Origin: Acaryochloris thomasi RCC1774
GTDB taxonomy: Bacteria; Cyanobacteriota; Cyanobacteriia; Thermosynechococcales; Thermosynechococcaceae
Assembly (NCBI RefSeq): GCF_003231495.1
Contig: NZ_PQWO01000039.1
Span: forward strand, 1 to 24,555
Length of the DNA stretch: 24,555 nucleotides
Direction: 5' to 3'
Shown here: piece after piece, positions 191 to 11,983 of the stretch
Numbering within the stretch: position 1 is the first letter of the stretch
Layout: the number at the start of each line of letters is the position of its first letter
Made by a program: the position numbers and the translations under genes
Notes under the pieces: generated by a model
Database searches by the model: none
The model's input: only the letters and a program-made list of their open reading frames with translations
Told to the model about the DNA's origin: nothing

Positions 191-213
191 GAGAGTGATC
201 AAAACCAGGGGAA
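191..213. repeat. Left 23-bp inverted repeat bounding an 884-bp decayed transposon remnant
   Basis: GAGAGTGATCAAAACCAGGGGAA matches the reverse complement of 1052..1074 at 22/23 positions. It abuts the stop codon of the transposase fragment (214..216). Confidence 0.6.
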
Positions 214-510
214 TCAAGCAGCCATAGGCATTTCCTCCACTGGTCCTGCTCGTGGGTACCATTCTTCAATCGTCTCCTTCCACTCAGCATTGAGAACCTT
301 TGTTCTCACTTGAAGCAACAAATGAGCACCCTTGGGTGTCCAGCGCATCTGTTGCTTTTTCTCCATCCGCTTAGCAATGATCTGATTGACAGCAGACTCC
401 ACAAACCCGGTTGAAATCCTTTCACCACAACGATATCGCTCTCCATAGTTTTGGATAAACCCCTGGTTGTTGTGGATGTACACCCTGAATTCTCGGATCG
501 CCTTGACCAT
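214..510 (-). pseudogene. DDE transposase, C-terminal ~98-aa fragment (ISKra4-like by remembered motifs)
   Basis: ...NYGERYRCGERISTGFVESAVNQIIAKRMEKKQQMRWTPKGAHLLLQVRTKVLN... is a C-terminal transposase signature. No N-terminal catalytic region is present. The fragment ends at ~510, where a resolvase fragment begins. Confidence 0.6.
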
Positions 511-1025
511 CTTGCTCGCAGCTCGATAAGCTCAGGGGCTGTGACAAGATTTTTCAGGAGAAGCGCAGTGGTGTTTCAAACCAACGGCCTCGGCTTAAGG
601 CTTGTCTGGAGTATGTCAGGGATGGAGACACGCTGGTAGTGACTCGGTTAGATCGGCTGGCCCGCTCTACGCTCCACTTGTGCCAGTTGGCAGAGCAATT
701 GAATAGCAAGCAGGTCCATCTACAAGTGCTTGACCAGAGTATTGATACTGCTGATGCAACTGGTCGGTTGCTCTTTAATGTGCTGGGAGCGATCGCACAA
801 TTTGAAACTGAAATCAGAGCAGAACGCCAGATGGATGGAATCAAAAATGCGAAAGTTCGTGGGGTCAGTTTTGGGCGTAAGAATAAGTTGAATCAACAGC
901 AGTGTTCCGAGCTACGGCAAAGGCGAGAGCAGGGGGAGCTGATCCGGGTGCTCATGAAGGATTACGGTCTTGCTAAGGCCAGTGTCTATCGATACCTCAA
1001 TGATGCCGAAGAGGGATGTGACTGA
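507..1025 (+). pseudogene. Serine recombinase/resolvase lacking its N-terminal ~20-25 residues (catalytic Ser region missing)
   Basis: The frame is open from 507: ...QLDKLRGCDKIFQEKRSGVSNQRPRLKACLEYVRDGDTLVVTRLDRLARS, then ...GAIAQFETEIRAERQMDGI..., then a C-terminal HTH (LAKASVYRYL). The usual MxxGYxRVSTxxQ start is absent. The ORF track reports only the 639 GTG-initiated part. Confidence 0.8.
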
Positions 1026-1051
1026 AGGATCTCAAGTGCAAGGGATCCAGC

Positions 1052-1074
1052 TTCCCCCGGTTTTGATCACTCTC
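1052..1074. repeat. Right 23-bp inverted repeat partner of 191..213
   Basis: TTCCCCCGGTTTTGATCACTCTC is the reverse complement of 191..213 with one mismatch. It lies 26 bp after the resolvase stop. Confidence 0.6.
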
Positions 1075-1091: not shown

Positions 1092-2681
1092 TTACTCAAA
1101 ATCAGCCCGTCTTTGAGCTTCCTTGACGGCTTCACCCGCATTCACTCTTCCAAAACCAAAGCGAGGACTAAATCCGTTGCCATCGTAACTAGATGAAGGG
1201 CCAATCTTTTTAGCGGTTTTCTGTAAAATCTCTCGTATCTCATCAGCACTTAATTCGGGATTTACAGATAACATTAGTGCTGCAATGCCAGCTGCGAGAG
1301 GGGTTGCCGATGAAGTACCACCAAAATCATTAGTATATAAGCCATCGGAACCACCTGCAGTACTTGAGCCAAGATTGAAACCACGATTATTCAAAGAAAT
1401 ATCGGTGGTAAAAATTCCTTTAATTCCACCACTTGAAGGAGCCACAAAATCAATTTCTTCCCCAATATTTGAGTAATTTGCAAGAGTTGCATTATCAGTT
1501 GATGCCCCCACCGCGATGGCCTCGCTGTGAGCTGCAGGAAAACTGACTGGACTAGCAAAGCCATTCCCCACAGCACAAAAAATAGCGGCTCCTTTTTCAT
1601 TTCGCCCTAACTGCTTAGCATCTTCTATAGCCAACTCAATATCTGGACTTTGAGGACCACTCCAAGAACAAGACAAAATATCTGCATTTGCAGCTGCATA
1701 ACGAATTGCATTGGCAACATGTTCATCAGGTGCAAGATCATCAGCATGAAATATTTTAATCGGAAGAATACGACAGCCGGGGGCAATTCCGACAGCACCT
1801 CCACTTTCACCATCAGAAGCAATGACTCCAGCACAGGGCGTGCCATGAATATCATTACCCGCTAATACATCGAACGGAAACTGGAAAATCTTAGGACTAG
1901 GATTGGAATGATCAGGATGATCCTCAGGAATAAAAAAATCACGACCATTAGGAGTAATACGAGAGACTAGATTAGAGTGCTCGATCTCTACACCATCATC
2001 AAGCACAGCAACCACAATAGAAGAATTTCCTGTTGTAATCTCCCAGGCACTCAGGGCATCAACGTCTTCACCGGCAGTTTGGCTATCCTTACCTAAATTA
2101 CGAAGATGCCATTCCTCCGTACGAATACTGGGGGGAGCGTCCCGAACAAATTGCGACACAAAGTTTGGGGTGGCAAAAACAACATCATCAGTCTCAGACC
2201 AATCATTGGCAACATCCACTAGGCCTTCATTTCGATACTGATTGTTGGGGTCATATACAATCACCTGTTCAGGCACGAATGGGTTAACTTTTCTGACTTG
2301 AAAGCCATATCGTGCCAACAAGTTAGTACGAGTTTGCCCAGATGTTCTGGCATTAAATCGAACGACAATCTCGTGATAAGCCGTGCGAATTAAACCTGAC
2401 TCAACCTCACGAACAACAAGAGGAGCCTCGACTGAAGCTGGGGAACTTGAGCGCACAACACCTTGTTGAAGCCCTATAAGAAAAAAAGATCGACAGGCAC
2501 GTGTGATTAGCTCTGAAACATCAGTTTGACCAATAGATGTTCGTCCAGTTGCGATAATAGATGGCGGCAAACCTAGTCGTTGATCTTCAACACTAGTAGA
2601 GACAATCTCTAACTCAACCCGCTGTTTATTTTTATTGAAAATATGCATTTTATAAGACCTTTTCAAATTATTTTTGTTCAC
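1092..2681 (-). CDS. Subtilisin-like serine peptidase (family S8) with a long N-terminal prodomain-like extension and no signal peptide
   Basis: Catalytic triad contexts: VAVLDDGVE (Asp), HGTPCAGVIAS (His), GGTSSATPLAAGIAALM (Ser). The oxyanion Asn is in AVGNG. The N-terminus lacks a hydrophobic signal segment. The annotated start is GTG; the ATG at 2648 (MHIFNK), preceded by AAAAGG, is a plausible alternative. Confidence 0.9.
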   Translation of the reverse strand: MNKNNLKRSYKMHIFNKNKQRVELEIVSTSVEDQRLGLPPSIIATGRTSIGQTDVSELITRACRSFFLIGLQQGVVRSSSPASVEAPLVVREVESGLIRTAYHEIVVRFNARTSGQTRTNLLARYGFQVRKVNPFVPEQVIVYDPNNQYRNEGLVDVANDWSETDDVVFATPNFVSQFVRDAPPSIRTEEWHLRNLGKDSQTAGEDVDALSAWEITTGNSSIVVAVLDDGVEIEHSNLVSRITPNGRDFFIPEDHPDHSNPSPKIFQFPFDVLAGNDIHGTPCAGVIASDGESGGAVGIAPGCRILPIKIFHADDLAPDEHVANAIRYAAANADILSCSWSGPQSPDIELAIEDAKQLGRNEKGAAIFCAVGNGFASPVSFPAAHSEAIAVGASTDNATLANYSNIGEEIDFVAPSSGGIKGIFTTDISLNNRGFNLGSSTAGGSDGLYTNDFGGTSSATPLAAGIAALMLSVNPELSADEIREILQKTAKKIGPSSSYDGNGFSPRFGFGRVNAGEAVKEAQRRADFE

Positions 2682-2714
2682 AGGACAGAAAAAAACTCAA
2701 GAGTAAATTTTCTC

Positions 2715-3215
2715 TCAAATTCTCTGATAACGAGCATAGGCATTTGCCCACGCTGCTTCAACGCCCTTTATCTTTGATATAGACTGAATTAAATCTGGGA
2801 GAAAAATTTCTGAGAGCTTGAGAGGTCTAAAAATAAGTTGTTGTGGAATATATTGGTTCACCTTTTCAAGAATTAAATTAAATTGACAAGAAAATTTTTC
2901 AATCTCAGTTTCAGTAGACACATTTGTGAACCGTACTGAAATGGCACCTGTTGGAATCAGATTATGTCCGGCTTCATCTATCATGATCGGCTCAACAGCC
3001 TCTTGATCTGTTAGATATTGTTGAAGGAATTCCCAACCTTGACGAGATGTAGAAGTATTCTTGATTTTTACGAGAAAAATACTTTGATTACCTACTTCAA
3101 GCGTCAGTTTTTCAACGTCAGATAGTCGAGCTAACTGATCCAGTAGATCATGATCATCTTCAGAATCAGTCATGACTCTAAAGGTATCTATACTAGGATG
3201 AAATTTCGTTGGCAT
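2715..3215 (-). CDS. Hypothetical 166-aa protein resembling the prodomain (I9-like) region of the downstream S8 peptidase
   Basis: It lies 33 bp upstream of the S8 gene on the same strand. By eye, VEPIMIDEAGHNLIPTGAISVRFTN...KVNQYIPQQLIF...VEAAWANAYARY parallels VEAPLVVREVESGLIRTAYHEIVVRFNA...KVNPFVPEQVIV...VVFATPNFVSQF in the S8 protein. No signal peptide. Confidence 0.5.
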   Translation of the reverse strand: MPTKFHPSIDTFRVMTDSEDDHDLLDQLARLSDVEKLTLEVGNQSIFLVKIKNTSTSRQGWEFLQQYLTDQEAVEPIMIDEAGHNLIPTGAISVRFTNVSTETEIEKFSCQFNLILEKVNQYIPQQLIFRPLKLSEIFLPDLIQSISKIKGVEAAWANAYARYQRI

Positions 3216-3390: not shown

Positions 3391-3925
3391 TTAAGGAGTG
3401 GTAGCAAGGGGAAGAATTTCCCTATCAACCCTATAGAGATCCCACGCCCGATTGAGCATGACTGTCTTCGTTTCAGCGAGTGCATCAGCTGTGGCTTCCG
3501 ACCAATACATTCCTTTATTCTTCTGTCGTTTAGCGACAATCAGATCGCAGGCTTTCTCTGTATGAGCACTGCCCATATATTGTCGGTTTAAACGTCGCTC
3601 ATTGTAATTGACGATATAGGAGTTTCGAGCCTTGAGATAGTCAATCAATTCTTGGAGCCTTTGCTCATTCTTGGTGTGCGGACGGCAAGCTTCTAACGCT
3701 TTAAGCGCAGACCCTACCCGTCCTATCCATATCGAAGAATGGAGCTTACTGTTGAGTGCCTTCTTTTCTGCACGAGTCGAACAAATCATCCCCGTAAAAT
3801 CAGCACATTTTCGATGAAGATGATACCAGTCAAGAAGTAGCTCCTTCTGGGTAAACTCGCTCAGCTCCCTATCGAAATAATTGCGAAGCCACTTGGCCCC
3901 ATCTCACAGCAGTGTCACCCAACCA
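3391..3925 (-). pseudogene. DDE transposase remnant (ISKra4/ISLre2-like), 5'-truncated and frameshifted
   Basis: The frame is open upstream of the listed Met as far as 3903: DGAKWLRNYFDRELSEFTQKELLLDWYHLHRK..., then ...YIVNYNERRLNRQYMGSAHTEKACDLIVAKRQKNKGMYWSEATADAL. A WLGD just upstream is in another frame, so the GDGAxW motif is split by an indel near 3904..3920. Confidence 0.6.
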
Positions 3926-4086: not shown

Positions 4087-4605
4087 TTAAAGACAGGCTT
4101 GTAATAGCTGATTTATTTCATCATTACTCAAACCATCTTGGTCAATTTTAGATAAAGCTTCAATTCTTTCTATAAGAACTCTTATATTGGCAAAAGAAAC
4201 TCCACCTGATGTCCCCAAAGTCGCGAGAGCAGCTCCAATATCAATAAAGGCAGCAACAAATCTTAAGGCCGATCGAATTTTATTTAATTTATCAATGGCA
4301 ATCTTAACTTTAGAAGTGACGCAACCAATTGTAGCTACCGCTTCAATAACATCAGTAGATGTTATGATACCTAAGGCTGCTTTAGTGTCAAGTTCTATTG
4401 CTTTTGTAAAACATTGATTAATTCTAGCGCTCGTTAAATCTATATCATCACGTTTTCTTTCAATGGAATCTTGCGGATCACCATTATTTATCGAGTCTCC
4501 GAGTTCATTCTGCAATATCAGTACACGAGATGTTAACTGATTTCCCATTTCGCGAAAATCAGCGGCTGTTTTTTGTAAGTTTTCTGAACTTAAATCTTGA
4601 GACAT
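4087..4605 (-). CDS. Hypothetical 172-aa all-helical protein with a small-residue (Gly/Ala) hydrophobic segment
   Basis: Complete ORF, 38 bp downstream of the lipoprotein gene on the same strand. The segment ALRFVAAFIDIGAALATLGTSGGVSF looks like a glycine-zipper or membrane-active helix. I recognise no family. Confidence 0.5.
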   Translation of the reverse strand: MSQDLSSENLQKTAADFREMGNQLTSRVLILQNELGDSINNGDPQDSIERKRDDIDLTSARINQCFTKAIELDTKAALGIITSTDVIEAVATIGCVTSKVKIAIDKLNKIRSALRFVAAFIDIGAALATLGTSGGVSFANIRVLIERIEALSKIDQDGLSNDEINQLLQACL

Positions 4606-4643
4606 AGCACACTCCGTTAAATAATGAAGATAAAAAACTGAAT

Positions 4644-5645
4644 TTAATCTGTAAAGACTTTGTCCGCTCTATCATTGAGAATTGCGACTTCTCTCGAATA
4701 GCTTTCAATAACTAAAACTAGATCTTCTGGGTATATAGTGCTCGATTTGGCAAATAAGCTTTCAAGGCCAGGAGTATTTTCGCATGTCAAATTCTCAGCG
4801 TTCTCAGTTTTGGTTTTTAGAAACAGGTTCTTTAAGCTTGCGTGATCACATGCAATTCCTTTCAGTAATGTCAAATAACTAGCAGCAAGATCTTGTTTTA
4901 GACGAATAGTTTCTTGATTCTCTGACCAATTTGACTTTAATACCTCAGTTACGTACTGCCGAACGGCAATCCCTTGACCTTCTCTTTGGTTAAAAATAGG
5001 GTTGATTAACAGTTTATAATAGGAGTCAAGGCTATTTCGCTCAGTCTCTAGAAGACCATTAACATAGTGATTCTTAATGGAGGTATCTAGTGCTACTACA
5101 AGCTTCGTCAAAGATGGATCTGCTGTAATAACTGCTTCTTTTAACTCCCTGCGGCGATAGTTGTTGGTAAATGCTGTGAATAGTATGCGTGCTAGTGCTG
5201 TCCCAGCACTAACTGCCTCTTGGCGTTGACCCGAATCTAGGCCAGGTAGTCGCTGAATCGATTCTCCAACGGCATTAATTTCGGTATCATAATTAGTCAG
5301 ATCATTTGCTGCAAGAGCACCCAAGGAACCTAAATATTCACGAATGATATTGTGTGTTTGGGTATACGCTTTTTTCAAGGCAATCGAACCGGTCTCGGGA
5401 TTATTGCAAACAGCTTCCCTTACACCTCTATCTGTATCAATAGTTTCACGATTTAGAATAATATAGTCTAGTTGTCGAATGCAAGTTTTATATACGTCAT
5501 CAGAAATTTTAGGAAAAAGCTCGGCAGACTGTGTTTGAAATTCTGCATATTTTTGTACTGCTTTAATTTCTAGAGGGGTTCCACACCCACTAAATAAAAA
5601 AACCGCAGGAGCAAGAAAGGGAATAAATTTTTTCTTTGATAGCAT
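4644..5645 (-). CDS. Putative lipoprotein, 333 aa, helical, unknown function
   Basis: The N-terminus MLSKKKFIPFLAPAVFLFSGCG has basic residues, a hydrophobic core and the lipobox LFSG|C. The mature part is predicted helical by composition. An AT-rich promoter-like region lies upstream. Confidence 0.65.
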   Translation of the reverse strand: MLSKKKFIPFLAPAVFLFSGCGTPLEIKAVQKYAEFQTQSAELFPKISDDVYKTCIRQLDYIILNRETIDTDRGVREAVCNNPETGSIALKKAYTQTHNIIREYLGSLGALAANDLTNYDTEINAVGESIQRLPGLDSGQRQEAVSAGTALARILFTAFTNNYRRRELKEAVITADPSLTKLVVALDTSIKNHYVNGLLETERNSLDSYYKLLINPIFNQREGQGIAVRQYVTEVLKSNWSENQETIRLKQDLAASYLTLLKGIACDHASLKNLFLKTKTENAENLTCENTPGLESLFAKSSTIYPEDLVLVIESYSREVAILNDRADKVFTD

Positions 5646-5810
5646 AACAACTTTCTCAATAGTTTTCGATAATGGATAAAATGATATTTACATAATAGAG
5701 TAGTATTTTCTTGATAAATACAACTTTATTAATTAATCCATTCTTCTTAAGAGATTTTTTTGCATAACTTCCCGAAAAGGTATACTCCAGATTGAAATGA
5801 GTGAGTTTTA

Positions 5811-6038
5811 TCAGAGTGGGAGCTGCATCAACTGCTGAAGAATTGCTTTCATATCAATGAGCTCAGGTTTTCTACTAAACTCATAGCGGCCATAGAAGTT
5901 GATATGCTGCCATGCCACTAGCGACACGAGTCTAAGCATCGCAATCCTGGCGGCATTCCCCTGGCTTTCACTGCAGAGAAATAGGTCAGATAAGATGGGC
6001 ATGTTGTAGTAGATGATGCAATTGATCAGCAGGCAATA
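5811..6038 (-). pseudogene. Tn3-family transposase (TnpA), extreme C-terminal ~75-aa remnant
   Basis: The extended frame reads YCLLINCIIYYNMPIL...LRLVSLVAWQHINFYGRYEFS. This matches the conserved Tn3-family C-terminus (LL.N.I..WN ... LSP..W.HIN..G.Y.F). Nothing upstream of it is present. Confidence 0.65.
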
Positions 6039-6095
6039 TCATCTGAAATTTCATTTGAAACACCTAATTACTCGACCTCAATATCATCAATAGAA

Positions 6096-7658
6096 TCACG
6101 AAATACGCGCTTTAAATCCCATTTTTACTGAAGAATTTGTGATATCGTAAATTTCTAAATTTGATAACGTACCATCCCACCATCGACTGTCAGGTGTAGT
6201 ATTGTCATTAAATTGATCATTATTCCCGGCATAGAAAAGATCTGTAGCATCACCTTCCCAATTCCCCTGCTTTTTTTCTAAATCATATCTGCCATCTGCT
6301 TGAACAAGTGAGCATTCAAAATGATACTTAGCTGTCATTTGTTCATGATTGTTGCTGCCGTCTATATCAACATGCCAAATAGCTATTCCTGCAGAAGGAA
6401 TATTTTTATCACGTCCACTCTGCTGCCGATTTTCAATTATAAAATATTCACGTTCATTTTTTCTGTGTATATAGAAATTATTTGTTCCAGATTGAATTAC
6501 TAAATTACTATCTTCTTCAACATTCAATATATTATTAGACCAACCAGCACGGTATTTGAGGTAGGCGCAAACTTGACTTGGATTTTTGTCATCAATATCT
6601 AAGCTATTACTCATCAAGCAAAAAGCACCAACACCAAATGAGGGTGGTTTAAATTCATCATATAGATCTGGAAAATTGCATATTAAATGTCCTGTTTCAT
6701 GACAAATCGTCCCCAATAATAATTGATCACTAATGTTTACTACGATATAGTCATTAGCTATTTTTTCTGGACTCAACATATATTCCTTTGAAAAATAACC
6801 AGTATGAGGGAATAGACCATCTACTCCTAATTGGGTATCATGATCGAAATCGCCTGCATATAAGATACTAATCGCATGAACGTAATTTTCATCGTCTACA
6901 GATAAACTAGAAAAATTAAAATCATTCAATTCTAAATATTCTAAGGCTTCAATTACTAATTCTTCTGAACGAGTACCGTATGGCTGAGTTTTATCTGAAT
7001 AGTATGACTTATTTTGTTTAGCTGTATAATACGGAGCAATAACATTCTTATATTTCAATTTACCATCTGAGTTTTCTAAGAAATAATCGCAAACAGAGCC
7101 ATTATTTCCAAAACCCGTATAACCTCTCAAATTAAAAAAATCATCAACTTCTGATGTAGTAATAAAGCTAGGAATAGATTCGTCAGGAAAAGCAACTACA
7201 ATACATAATCCTACAATATCGCCAACTACGTGGTGCTTGTCTGAATCTAACAGCGGTGCTGAATCTGACAAATTCGAGGATATCTGATCAGCATTAATTT
7301 GCTCGTATCTTTGTAGCCAACGAGGTTTTACTAAACTATCTACTGAGTTTATAAAATCATCTTGTTTCTGTTTTTCATGTATGAGTCTCAAGTTTTTTGC
7401 AAAGCTTAGATTTGTGGCTTCTCTTTCTTTGTCAAGAATAATTCCACTTGGAATAAGTTTATCAGAAGTTTCATTAAGTCTTGCATATTGATAAGTTCCA
7501 GTATATTGATCCTTTATTACTCTAAAACCATCAACCGTTTCGAATATAGTGTAATGGTGATTTCCCCAACCAATTACATCGAATGAATTACCATCTGGCT
7601 GACTAAATGCTAATTGTCGTCCAGCAAAAGGAAATGATTTAATATACGGTTTGTCCAT
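6096..7658 (-). CDS. M6 (immune inhibitor A-like) family zinc metalloprotease domain protein, no obvious signal peptide
   Basis: HETGHLICNFPDLYDE fits the HExxH...PD.Y signature of InhA/M6 peptidases. The protein is 520 aa and its N-terminus MDKPYIKSFPFAGRQ is not signal-like. Confidence 0.6.
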   Translation of the reverse strand: MDKPYIKSFPFAGRQLAFSQPDGNSFDVIGWGNHHYTIFETVDGFRVIKDQYTGTYQYARLNETSDKLIPSGIILDKEREATNLSFAKNLRLIHEKQKQDDFINSVDSLVKPRWLQRYEQINADQISSNLSDSAPLLDSDKHHVVGDIVGLCIVVAFPDESIPSFITTSEVDDFFNLRGYTGFGNNGSVCDYFLENSDGKLKYKNVIAPYYTAKQNKSYYSDKTQPYGTRSEELVIEALEYLELNDFNFSSLSVDDENYVHAISILYAGDFDHDTQLGVDGLFPHTGYFSKEYMLSPEKIANDYIVVNISDQLLLGTICHETGHLICNFPDLYDEFKPPSFGVGAFCLMSNSLDIDDKNPSQVCAYLKYRAGWSNNILNVEEDSNLVIQSGTNNFYIHRKNEREYFIIENRQQSGRDKNIPSAGIAIWHVDIDGSNNHEQMTAKYHFECSLVQADGRYDLEKKQGNWEGDATDLFYAGNNDQFNDNTTPDSRWWDGTLSNLEIYDITNSSVKMGFKARIS

Positions 7659-8629: not shown

Positions 8630-11600
8630 CTATCGGCTGAAAGAGGGGCCATAATGGTCGATGGACTGTTTTACTTGATACCGATACTCGAATGATTGAG
8701 CAGCAGTAGCGATGTCTTGATAACCATCTTTCGTGACTTTCATCTGCCGCACTTCTAAGTAGCCTCCTGCTGAACGCAGGTCAAGCATCTCTAGAATTGG
8801 TTCCTCTATTTCATTTTGCCAAACTCGCAGCTCTGTCCCATCTAGTCTCAATAGATATCGCTCACCCCGATAAACATATGCACTGCCCTCTTGAGATCCC
8901 GCCTGCTTAAGTATTGTCAGAACATTTGTATGTAGCTCATAGGCCATCGTTAAATCTTGCAGTCTTGATTGCACCTGAGACTCTTGTAGCTGCCTAGCCT
9001 TCTCTCGCATCAGCTCCGTCTGTGGATCCTCATCCCACTTCTGGTAAGCATCCATTTGCCCTTGCCATCCTTGTAACTGTCTCTGTGCCTTCCTTAGAGT
9101 CCGCTCCACTTGGCTCAACTGCTGCTGAGATTCGTGCAATAGCTGCCGCTTTGCCTCTATCACCTCCGGCCTTTCTCCACTCCAATTAAATAAAGACCGC
9201 TGTGGCCCCATCTCCTCAAGTTCCTGCTGCTGCTCCCGACAGTCAAACACTAAATCAGATCGCTGAACCGATAGCTGACTCACCCTCTGCTTTAATCTCT
9301 CACCCACAGCCAGATCTGGCTGTTCAGGACGGTCTTGCGCTAACCATGCCTTCACCTCCTGCTGCAGCTTCAGTAGCTCGGTATCTCTTCTCCTCACCGG
9401 AACCTCAATCAAATCCTGAGCATTCTCCTGACCTCTGGAAAACTGGGCACTCAATCCCAACCCTGTACGGTCAGTCGTCACAATCTCTAACTCAGACTTA
9501 GCTCTAGAGAGCGCTACATAGGTCTGCTCTTTACCAGGACTCTTCCCCGGTGCCCAAATCGCCTCCTGCGCCGTCCAACCCTGCGCGGCATACACCGTCC
9601 GGCAATAGGCATAATCAACATGCACTAATTGGTCAGGGGTCAGCCTCTCTATCTTCCCCTTGGTATTGATGGAGATCGTGCCATCAGGGTTGAATGAATC
9701 AATCGTGAACAGCTGGCCATTGATCTGCCCCCACTCTCGATGGTTCCGAGTAAACCGCAGACGGTCCCCTACTCGTAGCTCAATCTCTTGAGCAGAAAAC
9801 ACCTCTCTATCTTTGTACTTATCAATAGGGCAATCTTTGACCTCACCAAAGCGGTCCTGCAGCTTCAGTCGGTTGGGTTGAACATCAACCACCCGATAGT
9901 AAGGTTCAGGAAACTGCTTCGTAGAACGCCGAAACCGCACCACATCTCCGACCTCATAGCTATAAGCCTGAGCGATCGCATTTTTATCTAGATTCTTCGG
10001 ATGCAGCATCTCAATCACTTGAGCCTCAGTTCCCAGCGTCTGACGGTCGATATAGGCGGCTCTGATTTGATGAGTAATGTCTTGGCGGTCCTGATTGGTA
10101 TCACAGATGATCAAGGTCTGTACCTGTCGCTCATGGGGTCGGGATAGGTACCGCTTAGCAACACTATGATTACGGGCCTTCAATACTGGAATCTCTTTGA
10201 CGCAGCCATGACCATCCAAGATCTCTAGCGCTGCTTGAGACTGCTGCTCTGCTGCTAGATCAACTGCTTCTTTAAGCTGCGGTGTCACCTGCCTTAAGTT
10301 CTCATCAATGGTTACTGTTTTGAGCTGGGAACGTTCCTGCAAGAGTCGGAATGGGGCACCCGCCTGCACCGCACTGAGCTGCTTGGTATCGCCCACTAAG
10401 ATCAAGCGACTACTGAGGTCATTGGCTTTCTCAATCAGCTTCGCCATCTGCTGAGTCGAGAGCATTCCGGCTTCATCAATCACTAGGATCTCGTCTCGCT
10501 GTAGCTGCTTATTAGGTATCAACAGATAGCGATCCACCGTACTTGATTGCATTCCTGCTTCTTGTCCTAAGACTTCAGACGTTGCTGCACTGGGTGCAAG
10601 TCCTCTCAATCTTTGTTGAGCATTTTCATCTAGTACATCTCTAAAGGCTGATAGGGTATAGGTCTTTCCAACTCCCGCATTCCCCTGCAGCAAAGTGATC
10701 TGGTCGGTGCTCGTTGCCATGTGCAGCAGTCCAGCCGCTTGACCTTCGTTTAGACCTTTCTCTTGAGCGATGGCATTGACCTGCTCTGGTGTCACTAAGG
10801 CTTCTCTAGATTCCTGTCCATTATTCGCAACCTCAAGGATCAATTGCTCTCGCTGAATCGCTCTGTTAGTCGTTAGGCGTCCATCGTCCGTAGAAATCAA
10901 TTCCTCAGACTGCTCCAAAGCTTGCTCTATCTCTACTGGAGAATAGAATGCTTGAGCATGACGTAGGCAGTCCTGCAAGAGTCGCGGTCGGGAGACGGCA
11001 ACTTGATGCGCTGTAGCGCTCTCAATGGCAGCTTCAATCACCGTCTGTATGCTGCCGGGATGTGAGTCTCTTGTATAAGCTCGTTCTAAGTCTTGTTGCG
11101 GTTGCGGATGAATAATATTGAGTTCAGCAGATATTCTTTTCCAGCTCTCTCGCTGCAGTTCATGATCTGCGGGTGTTAGTTTATGAACCTTGGCCGTTCG
11201 ACTCTCTAAACAAGCAATCTGCTTTTGATGCTCCGTCGCTTGCTCTAGCTGAATATTCTGTTGCTCTAAGTATGCTCGGATATCCTGCCGTCTGCTGCTG
11301 AACGATTCTAGTTGCTCTGGTTCGTAGCCTCGAATCTCAAAGGTATGCTCACCCGTCCAGTCAATCTCAAAGCCTTGCTTATGTAATTGGTGAGCAAAGG
11401 AATGGTCATAGTAAGCACCGATAGTCTTCTTCTGATTGAACAGCTCTCGACTATCCAAAGTTCTCGATTTACCATCGACACACAGGGTCTGATTAAGAAT
11501 CACGACATGGGTATGCAGCTGCGGCTCTTGGTTGCGATTATCATCATGCTTAAATAGGGCAAACTGACCTTGCTTCGTTTGCTCACTGATCACCTGTCCC

Positions 11601-11983
11601 TGCTGCTTCACCTGAGCAAAGATGCAGTGCTCCTCAATATAGTTGACGGTGGCAGTGACAGCTTGTCGGTGAGCTTCTAGAACTCGTGGGTCTTGATCTA
11701 CCAAGGCTTTGAGCGAAGCAGACTTATTAGCTGAAAGCGTAATATCCCATCCGGCTCTGCTGTTCTTCTGCTGTCGTCTAAGAGCTTGGCCTTGATTGTC
11801 TTTTCCATTACAAGCTTGCTGCCATTGCTCAGCAGTGATTCTTCCTGTTAGTCCTTGATGCTCTGAGAATTTGCCTTGCCATTGAGAGTTCTCTAGTCCA
11901 TCTCCTTGGCTGTAGTAATTATCCTTGGAGTGATAGGTCTCCAAGGCTTTCGCATTCATCGGTTTGCTGATGCTAGCAACCAT
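8630..11983 (-). CDS. MOBF-family conjugative relaxase fused to a RecD-like helicase (TrwC/TraI type), with a long C-terminal coiled-coil extension
   Basis: N-terminal relaxase motifs: YHSKDNYY (catalytic Tyr cluster), SQWQGK...GLTG, ITLSANKSASLKALV, and the three-His motif FKHDDNRNQEPQLHTHVVILN. Helicase motifs: LLQGNAGVGKTY (Walker A), ILVIDEAGML (Walker B), LVGDTKQLSAVQAGAPF, YAYCRTVYAAQGWT, TYVALSRAK. Confidence 0.9.
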   Translation of the reverse strand: MVASISKPMNAKALETYHSKDNYYSQGDGLENSQWQGKFSEHQGLTGRITAEQWQQACNGKDNQGQALRRQQKNSRAGWDITLSANKSASLKALVDQDPRVLEAHRQAVTATVNYIEEHCIFAQVKQQGQVISEQTKQGQFALFKHDDNRNQEPQLHTHVVILNQTLCVDGKSRTLDSRELFNQKKTIGAYYDHSFAHQLHKQGFEIDWTGEHTFEIRGYEPEQLESFSSRRQDIRAYLEQQNIQLEQATEHQKQIACLESRTAKVHKLTPADHELQRESWKRISAELNIIHPQPQQDLERAYTRDSHPGSIQTVIEAAIESATAHQVAVSRPRLLQDCLRHAQAFYSPVEIEQALEQSEELISTDDGRLTTNRAIQREQLILEVANNGQESREALVTPEQVNAIAQEKGLNEGQAAGLLHMATSTDQITLLQGNAGVGKTYTLSAFRDVLDENAQQRLRGLAPSAATSEVLGQEAGMQSSTVDRYLLIPNKQLQRDEILVIDEAGMLSTQQMAKLIEKANDLSSRLILVGDTKQLSAVQAGAPFRLLQERSQLKTVTIDENLRQVTPQLKEAVDLAAEQQSQAALEILDGHGCVKEIPVLKARNHSVAKRYLSRPHERQVQTLIICDTNQDRQDITHQIRAAYIDRQTLGTEAQVIEMLHPKNLDKNAIAQAYSYEVGDVVRFRRSTKQFPEPYYRVVDVQPNRLKLQDRFGEVKDCPIDKYKDREVFSAQEIELRVGDRLRFTRNHREWGQINGQLFTIDSFNPDGTISINTKGKIERLTPDQLVHVDYAYCRTVYAAQGWTAQEAIWAPGKSPGKEQTYVALSRAKSELEIVTTDRTGLGLSAQFSRGQENAQDLIEVPVRRRDTELLKLQQEVKAWLAQDRPEQPDLAVGERLKQRVSQLSVQRSDLVFDCREQQQELEEMGPQRSLFNWSGERPEVIEAKRQLLHESQQQLSQVERTLRKAQRQLQGWQGQMDAYQKWDEDPQTELMREKARQLQESQVQSRLQDLTMAYELHTNVLTILKQAGSQEGSAYVYRGERYLLRLDGTELRVWQNEIEEPILEMLDLRSAGGYLEVRQMKVTKDGYQDIATAAQSFEYRYQVKQSIDHYGPSFSR

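Follow-up and report, generated by a model that had tools for sequence, protein, structure and literature searches.

A 24,555-bp, plasmid-like contig of Acaryochloris thomasi RCC1774 (the window, by which this whole stretch of DNA is meant) carries an S8 subtilase gene and, beside it, the gene for a small protein of 166 aa. Sequence comparison shows that this small protein has, as its C-terminal domain, a paralog of the prodomain found in the neighboring protease. The two genes probably encode an undescribed bacterial protease/trans-prodomain pair, and the interpretation that we favor, with moderate confidence, is that of a cytoplasmic zymogen-type subtilase whose cognate prodomain paralog would act in trans as an inhibitor and/or a chaperone.

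The protease, its small partner and their shared domain

Both open reading frames (ORFs) lie on the minus strand, at 2715..3215 (166 aa) and 1092..2681 (529 aa when counted from a GTG codon). The GTG at 2681 is the longest-ORF start of the protease but is not the conserved start: in alignments with 51 and then 119 full-length homologs, the family N-terminus M-[HY]-I-x-N corresponds to ATG 2648. Given this N-terminus and a Shine-Dalgarno-like GAAAAGG, the protease start is placed at ATG 2648, which gives a protein of 518 aa and a gap of 66 nt, rather than 33, between the genes. The deposited annotation of the small gene (152 aa) starts 14 codons late; ATG 3215 is assigned as its start because both a conserved P7-S8 motif and the first modelled β-strand (residues 6-16) require it. 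No terminator was predicted in the 66-nt gap by a promoter/terminator scan, and it is plausible from the gene layout that the two genes are co-transcribed in the window. An earlier first-pass annotation, made from the DNA letters, had described an operon with a 33-bp gap; its two adjacent minus-strand ORFs stand, but its gap size does not. The features of the module are as follows, with domains and secondary structure taken from AlphaFold2 (AF2) models where indicated.

2715..3215, minus strand: small gene, ORF of 166 aa plus stop
2976..3215, minus strand: small N-terminal domain, residues 1-80, ferredoxin-like fold (AF2 secondary structure)
2718..2975, minus strand: small C-terminal domain, residues 81-166, S8-prodomain paralog (hhalign), ending ...WANAYARYQRI-COOH
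2721..2723, minus strand: codon of conserved Arg165 of the small protein, present in the family tail motif
2649..2714, minus strand: 66-nt spacer, with GAAAAGG 9-15 nt 5' of ATG 2648
1092..2648, minus strand: S8 subtilase gene, 518 aa plus stop, PF00082 at E = 3.8e-44, without a signal peptide
2403..2648, minus strand: S8 N1 subdomain, residues 1-82 (AF2)
2139..2402, minus strand: S8 N2 prodomain-like domain, residues 83-170 (AF2, and hhalign to the small C-terminal domain)
2142..2144, minus strand: codon of S8 Arg169 in the N2 end PNFVSQFVR (coordinates verified)
2079..2138, minus strand: linker between prodomain and catalytic domain, residues 171-190, APPSIRTEEWHLRNLGKDSQ, holding an invariant W-H-L (predicted local distance difference test score, pLDDT, 86-95)
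1095..2078, minus strand: S8 catalytic domain, residues 191-518, with columns invariant in 120 homologs
1998..2000, 1845..1847 and 1311..1313, minus strand: catalytic Asp217, His268 and Ser446 (codons verified)
1563..1565, minus strand: oxyanion Asn362 (codon verified)

The protease matches Peptidase_S8 (PF00082) over residues 220-511 of the 529-aa ORF with 151.6 bits against a cut-off of 21.8, carries the catalytic triad in the order Asp-His-Ser together with the oxyanion Asn, and has full-length homologs at about 55% identity. To judge from these residues, the catalytic tetrad is intact. In the AF2 model (pLDDT 91.9), the protein would be laid out as N1, a prodomain-like N2, a linker and the catalytic domain. 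The elements of N1, which has a mean pairwise identity of 35%, are strands at 2-4, 10-15, 17-21 and 30-34, a helix at 44-55 and a strand at 77-81. Among solved structures, mirolase is the closest to the catalytic domain (hmmsearch E = 5.7e-59; Foldseek E = 5.5e-31, 36% identity), followed in Foldseek by the catalytic domains of Kex2 and furin, to which the alignment covers about 365 columns within the catalytic domain only; 3wqb is also among the structural neighbors of the model. The DDG and HGTxCAG motifs are kexin-like by eye, but the P domain of kexin/furin (S8B) enzymes is absent, as the protein ends with a helix at 504-517 directly after the catalytic domain. In the S8 alignment (columns ~625-722), eight homologs (P0031, P0034, P0051, P0064, P0073, P0078, P0087 and P0119) carry a Lys/Ala/Gly-rich, histone-H1-like C-terminal tail, which may be a polyanion- or nucleic-acid-binding extension; the window protein is without such a tail.

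The small protein belongs to an unnamed family of about 163 aa, represented by 130 homologs in a profile search and by 349 clusters at 50% identity. When the window protein was used as a single query sequence, only the protein itself and one close relative were returned, and the homologs were recovered by reading the neighbors of S8 homologs and then by profile searching. No Pfam or NCBIfam family matches the small protein, and literature searches found no specific work on this family or on PrcA. Its AF2 model, built from the family alignment, has a pLDDT of 88.7 and a predicted template-modelling score (pTM) of 0.83. Weak matches to DUF3693 ("Phage related protein") were seen in 14 of 108 small proteins (best E = 5.7e-5, residues ~48-65), but these are confined to a short helix (profile positions 8-25 of 60) and are probably spurious.

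BLASTP of the two window proteins gave 27% identity over 55 aa at E = 2e-4, spanning residues 76-128 of the small protein and 87-141 of the protease (529-aa numbering). Alignment by hhalign of family profiles built from 65 small and 52 S8 proteins gave a probability of 96.3% (E = 1.6e-9, 88 columns), and comparison of domain with domain gave 97.7% (E = 1.9e-12). A hidden Markov model of the small family also matches S8 genes of other loci in their prodomain region, at E = 2.6e-7 to 1e-4. The homologous span comprises residues 81-166 of the small protein and 83-170 of the protease (518-aa numbering), whereas the N-terminal halves of the two proteins have no detectable relation to each other or to the C-terminal domains. 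For the small N-terminal domain, hhalign probabilities stayed under 1% in comparisons with each of the two S8 N-terminal subdomains and with the C-terminal domain of the same protein; an internal duplication of the two halves of the small protein and a match of its N-terminal half to N1 were thus both looked for and not found. The resemblance to the S8 N-terminal region noticed in the first-pass annotation is thus significant by pairwise and profile alignment, and three patches picked out there (LI.T..I.VRF, KVN..P.Q.I and V..A.[AP]N) are aligned conserved columns, but the paralogy holds for the C-terminal half of the small protein and not for its N-terminal half.

In the AF2 models, the small C-terminal domain consists of strand 85-96, helix 102-111, strands 114-119 and 126-131, helix 139-147 and strand 152-160, and S8 N2 consists of strand 87-98, helix 104-114, strands 117-121 and 128-132, helix 141-151 and strand 156-161. 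These elements give both domains the structural pattern of an I9 propeptide. Both paralogs also end in a common motif, [AP]-N-x-[LV]-S-x-[FY]-x-R. In the S8 family, this reads P-N-F-V-S-[QE]-[FY]-x-R, after which the chain runs on through the linker to the catalytic domain; alignment of the mature mirolase chain starts near profile position 177, a few residues past this motif. In the small family, the consensus is W-A-N-T-L-S-x-[YF]-x-R, 104 of 108 members have the Arg, and only 1-4 residues follow it. Across the 349 clusters, the family profile match reaches the C-terminus almost always, even where the called N-terminus is longer. A shared tail and a fixed C-terminal end are what a mimic of a cleaved propeptide would be predicted to have. 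No co-variation of the variable tail residue (x of [FY]-x-R) between partners was evident by eye.

Conservation and arrangement of the pair

A genome scan seeded with the small family yielded 31 loci, in 30 of which an intact S8 homolog is directly adjacent; the remaining locus (L008) has a decayed S8 remnant. When a metagenome scan was seeded with the S8 N-terminal region, 80 loci were obtained, 14 of them on contigs too short to be used and 66 informative, and the small gene is adjacent in 63 of these 66. Four further neighborhoods each contain the small gene. The pairing spans five bacterial phyla, with hosts in the Acidobacteriota (Thermoanaerobaculia, Pyrinomonadaceae and Bryobacterales), Planctomycetota, Betaproteobacteria (Casimicrobiaceae), Actinobacteria (Solirubrobacterales) and Acaryochloris. 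The first-pass annotation would have given up its proposal had the pairing not been conserved in other genomes; given that it is conserved, those grounds fall away. Three loci (L105, L112 and L115), which are among the most divergent S8 matches, have room on both flanks and no adjacent small gene; they may represent a sister subfamily without a partner, or their partner may be encoded elsewhere.

The order and orientation of the genes vary. Among the 63 pair loci, the small gene lies upstream on the same strand in 37, downstream and convergent in 23 and upstream and divergent in 3, that is, about 58% co-directional and 37% convergent in the S8-centered survey; most loci of the genome scan are convergent too. 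Early examples of the first two arrangements were a Singulisphaera locus (upstream, same strand) and a Thermoanaerobaculia metagenome-assembled genome (MAG; downstream, convergent). Given that 23 of the 63 loci are convergent, co-transcription is impossible in those loci. In the convergent pairs, for example those of L012, L019, L065 and L072, the 3' ends are about 10-110 bp apart, with an overlap in L019, so that the transcripts could overlap and there is room for antisense coupling. A fourth arrangement was seen in L120, where a small homolog missed by the gene caller (8567..~9040, plus strand) lies downstream of the protease on the same strand; this pair adjoins lon-clpX-clpP-tig. In L008, a Thermoanaerobaculia MAG, all that is left of the protease gene is an N-terminal remnant, located between comEC and an intact small gene.

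5969..6691 (minus strand) and 6001..6474 (plus strand) of L008: region of the S8 decay beside the intact small gene

Divergence of the small protein is correlated with that of the protease (r = 0.80 over 45 pairs; Mantel p about 0.001), and the small protein evolves faster, with a mean pairwise identity of 37% versus 58% for the protease. The faster divergence, together with homology confined to one domain, would fit a purely historical account in which a partial tandem duplication of the 5' region of the protease gene left behind a small protein with an unrelated function or none. A relic of this kind would not be expected to stay adjacent through repeated inversions across five phyla, to maintain, throughout the 349 clusters, a C-terminus at a fixed place together with 8 residues that are invariant and about 28 that are nearly so, or to co-diverge with the protease to the degree observed, and we regard this account as very improbable.

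Localization, known families and mode of action

Upstream extension of either ORF is impossible, and the N-termini of both proteins are conserved structural β-strands in the AF2 models. No signal-peptide-like hydrophobic stretch was found in the first 45 aa among 108 small and 120 S8 homologs, in which the highest 12-residue Kyte-Doolittle value was ≤2.0, compared with 2.2-2.8 for three control signal peptides. After the S8 catalytic domain there is no sorting domain, as the modelled protein ends there. The absence of a signal peptide from both proteins, as noted at the first pass, thus extends to both families. Both proteins are apparently cytoplasmic, although a non-classical export route may serve the protease or its partner.

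Links to curated families are weak. PF22148 (Fervidolysin_NPro-like) matches 11 of the 108 small proteins, the best match reaching 19.6 bits against a gathering threshold of 21 and spanning profile positions 8-79 of 81, and it also weakly matches 4 of 20 S8 N-terminal regions. PF18492 (ORF_2_N) weakly matches the C-terminal domain of 26 of the 108 (best E = 3.4e-4); two such matches that were scored individually gave 12.5 and 13.2 bits, below the 29.2-bit cut-off. The sub-threshold matches to both families fall in the C-terminal half of the small protein. Inhibitor_I9 (PF05922) was unmatched at E up to 10 among the 108 small proteins and 20 S8 N-terminal regions. Because these sequence thresholds were not passed, the small protein is not filed in I9, PF22148 or PF18492. 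The I9/fervidolysin-type propeptide layout proposed in the first-pass annotation is retained at the level of the AF2 elements, whereas the sequence match to PF05922 is lacking and that to PF22148 is sub-threshold. A profile of the S8 N-terminal region found nothing meaningful in the PDB; the sole PDB profile match, Rpp30 at E = 0.7, was treated as chance.

By analogy with characterized systems, our best reading is that the pair would be a bacterial equivalent of the free-standing I9 inhibitors of eukaryotes and of ASP/ORF2 of Aeromonas sobria (PDB 3WQB, PF18492). ASP, too, is a subtilase of bacterial origin; its catalytic domain is kexin-like, a small gene lies beside its own, and the product of that small gene, ORF2, is a folding chaperone in trans and a temporary inhibitor, a trans role like the one proposed here. 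The C-terminal residues of ORF2 are positioned at the catalytic site of ASP, which is inhibited by ORF2 with a half-maximal inhibitory concentration (IC50) of about 84 nM (PMC5638518). The weak ORF_2_N matches in the small family are a further likeness, and the tail comparison with ORF2 would carry over to the Acaryochloris locus. By contrast, ASP is secreted and has no propeptide of its own, whereas the window protease has a cis prodomain and no signal peptide, and so differs from the type of protease that ORF2 serves. Two further differences are that the ORF2 gene takes the downstream place in an operon, whereas the present pair varies in orientation, and that the small protein carries an additional ferredoxin-like domain at its N-terminus.

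Free-standing mimics of propeptides, which inhibit subtilases potently, are known from fungi, plants and apicomplexans (PBI2, POIA1, SPI-1, MIC5 and SUB1-ProM), with SUB1-ProM encoded beside its subtilase genes (PMC6993865). The characterized I9 mimics are all eukaryotic and single-domain, most are without sequence similarity to the propeptide of their target, and a convergent origin has been raised as a possibility (PMC6993865). The MEROPS I9 members, namely yeast PBI2, Pleurotus POIA1, Arabidopsis SPI-1, Toxoplasma MIC5 and Plasmodium SUB1-ProM, share with the proposed pair the principle of a prodomain mimic in trans. Unlike them, the partner here is bacterial, has two domains and is a detectable paralog of the cognate prodomain; partner and protease are apparently cytoplasmic, and the Inhibitor_I9 family is unmatched.

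Potempins are not known to be related to a prodomain, and export in that system proceeds via the type IX system. The mirolase/potempin C pair of Tannerella forsythia (PDB 8EHE) resembles the present one in having an inhibitor gene beside the protease gene: KLIKK peptidase genes directly follow the genes of specific inhibitors, the potempins are lipoproteins of the outer membrane, and mirolase is a secreted enzyme (PMC9890683). In contrast, neither protein here has a signal peptide or a lipobox. Fervidolysin and the pro-subtilisins (1R6V, 3WHI, PF22148) are alike in aligning with the S8 model over >430 Foldseek columns and in the weak PF22148 matches to both proteins; they differ in being secreted and in having no free-standing paralog, and the match to PF22148 is sub-threshold.

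In the interpretation that we favor, the C-terminal domain of the partner would dock on the catalytic domain at the site of the cis prodomain, and its free tail, made up of ...N-x-L-S-x-[FY]-x-R and a further 1-4 residues, would occupy the substrate cleft or its vicinity in the manner of a cleaved propeptide. The partner would thereby be a trans inhibitor and/or folding chaperone, and the protease would remain latent inside the cell until the partner is removed. Several points weigh against this scheme. We infer the binding itself, its site, the balance of inhibition and chaperoning, and autoprocessing of the cis prodomain. The protease carries a prodomain of its own, which makes the need for a second one in trans less obvious. 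Every Pfam link lies below its curated threshold, and the small-family profile finds nothing meaningful in the PDB, ORF2 and the pro-subtilisins included. Foldseek of the whole small model returns generic tandem ferredoxin-like folds (RRM and ACT), which are non-discriminating. The alignment of pro-subtilisin E and fervidolysin with the S8 model has a root mean square deviation of about 21 Å, so the modelled prodomain may sit outside the canonical position. Finally, on inspection by eye, the S1-pocket region looks like that of subtilisin, with Gly/Ser at its bottom, and not acidic, which leaves a P1-Arg reading of the tail unsupported; kexin-like P1-Arg specificity of the tail is accordingly not claimed.

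The same structural features could instead suit a regulatory or adaptor subunit, which might pair with N2 by sheet-to-sheet dimerization, compete with N2 so as to activate the protease, or deliver targets as a substrate or adaptor. The two-domain build, in which the N-terminal domain is non-homologous and could bind a different target, is in keeping with this, as tandem ferredoxin-like folds such as ACT and RRM commonly dimerize or bind ligands; prodomain-driven dimerization is documented for Plasmodium SUB1 (PMC10936178), and conserved adjacency and co-divergence would fit any physical partnership. Set against it are the strict C-terminal end and the tail held in common with the cis prodomain, which point to a propeptide-tail mode of binding, and the location of the residues conserved in both paralogs, which are mainly on the β-strands and so would lie on the side that touches the catalytic domain in the propeptide complexes known so far. 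A regulatory or adaptor role is less likely than the favored interpretation but has to be taken seriously.

Genomic context and biological meaning

Transposon debris flanks the module in the window, on a plasmid-like background, as the first-pass annotation had noticed.

3391..3789, minus strand: C-terminal fragment of an ISKra4-family transposase (NF033572 at 8.6e-14, profile positions 308-422 of 422)
191..1074, no strand assigned: mobile-element debris on the downstream flank, bracketed by inverted repeats
214..510, minus strand: C-terminal fragment of an ISKra4 transposase, within the debris
639..1025, plus strand: resolvase fragment without the first ~69 catalytic-domain positions, within the debris
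191-213 and 1052-1074: 23-nt inverted repeats, 96% complementary, bracketing the debris
8630..11983: TrwC relaxase
4087..7658, minus strand: three genes upstream of the module (172 aa, 333 aa and 520 aa)

The fragment at 3391..3789 has 83% DNA identity to an Acaryochloris plasmid. The ISKra4 fragments on either side of the protease module share their orientation, in a composite-transposon-like layout. The nearest relative is only about 58% identical once one metagenomic contig with 89% identity is set aside. Acaryochloris probably acquired the module by horizontal transfer, on a relaxase-bearing plasmid and between ISKra4 remnants. Among the three upstream neighbors, the 172-aa protein has no family, the 333-aa protein has a lipoprotein-like N-terminus (...FLFSGC) and the 520-aa protein has an M6-family metalloprotease domain (TIGR03296 at 8.7e-41), so that the region holds a second protease gene.

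Elsewhere, the contexts are of a different kind. The synteny comEC-S8-small-miaA-hfq recurs in 14 Acidobacteriota loci and is conserved in Thermoanaerobaculia, other pairs lie next to lon-clpX-clpP-tig or among transporters and metabolic enzymes, and six sampled neighborhoods hold housekeeping or metabolic genes. All-versus-all ORF clustering revealed no third conserved gene beyond lineage-specific synteny (comEC, miaA and hfq), its result being swamped by spurious high-GC ORFs. The PADLOC "subtilase" model matches the protease at 8e-27 through the generic catalytic domain only, and PADLOC gave no match for the small protein or for ten neighbors in the window. No defense genes were seen in the sampled neighborhoods, and a scan of viral contigs found no relatives.

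These contexts bear on the suggestion, also made at the first pass, that the pair follows toxin-antitoxin (TA) or abortive-infection logic, in which a labile trans prodomain would restrain a toxic protease and its disappearance, for instance on phage infection or plasmid loss, would unleash lethal proteolysis. The window pair is indeed co-directional and located on a mobilizable contig with insertion-sequence remnants at its flanks, its protease appears from its sequence to be cytoplasmic and matches PADLOC, and the loss of the protease but not of the small gene in L008 is the direction tolerated in a TA pair. However, the bicistronic operon of type II TA systems is not conserved (23/63 pairs convergent, 3/63 divergent), so co-transcription is not obligatory; the surroundings are those of housekeeping, metabolic or proteostasis genes; S8 genes without an adjacent small gene exist; and the protease keeps its own cis prodomain. 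Neither a match to a specific defense-system model nor, in the sampled neighborhoods, a recurrent placement among defense genes was found. A TA or abortive-infection role is therefore very improbable. A broader proposal, for which we see only a slim chance, is that of an intracellular protease switch: a labile trans prodomain would gate the subtilase, and its loss under stress, on plasmid loss or on infection would free proteolysis that remodels or kills the cell, a protease-based addiction or abortive-infection mechanism of an undescribed kind, which an Acaryochloris plasmid would have captured.

Independently of its mode of action, the finding corrects two gene starts of the public annotation. 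The known bacterial case of a trans chaperone, ASP/ORF2, concerns a secreted enzyme without its own propeptide. If the interpretation of a cytoplasmic zymogen-type subtilase with a trans-acting prodomain paralog is true, it would define a bacterial system for the latency of a cytoplasmic subtilase, give a function to a family of hypothetical proteins and provide a clean evolutionary example of a prodomain turned independent regulator.

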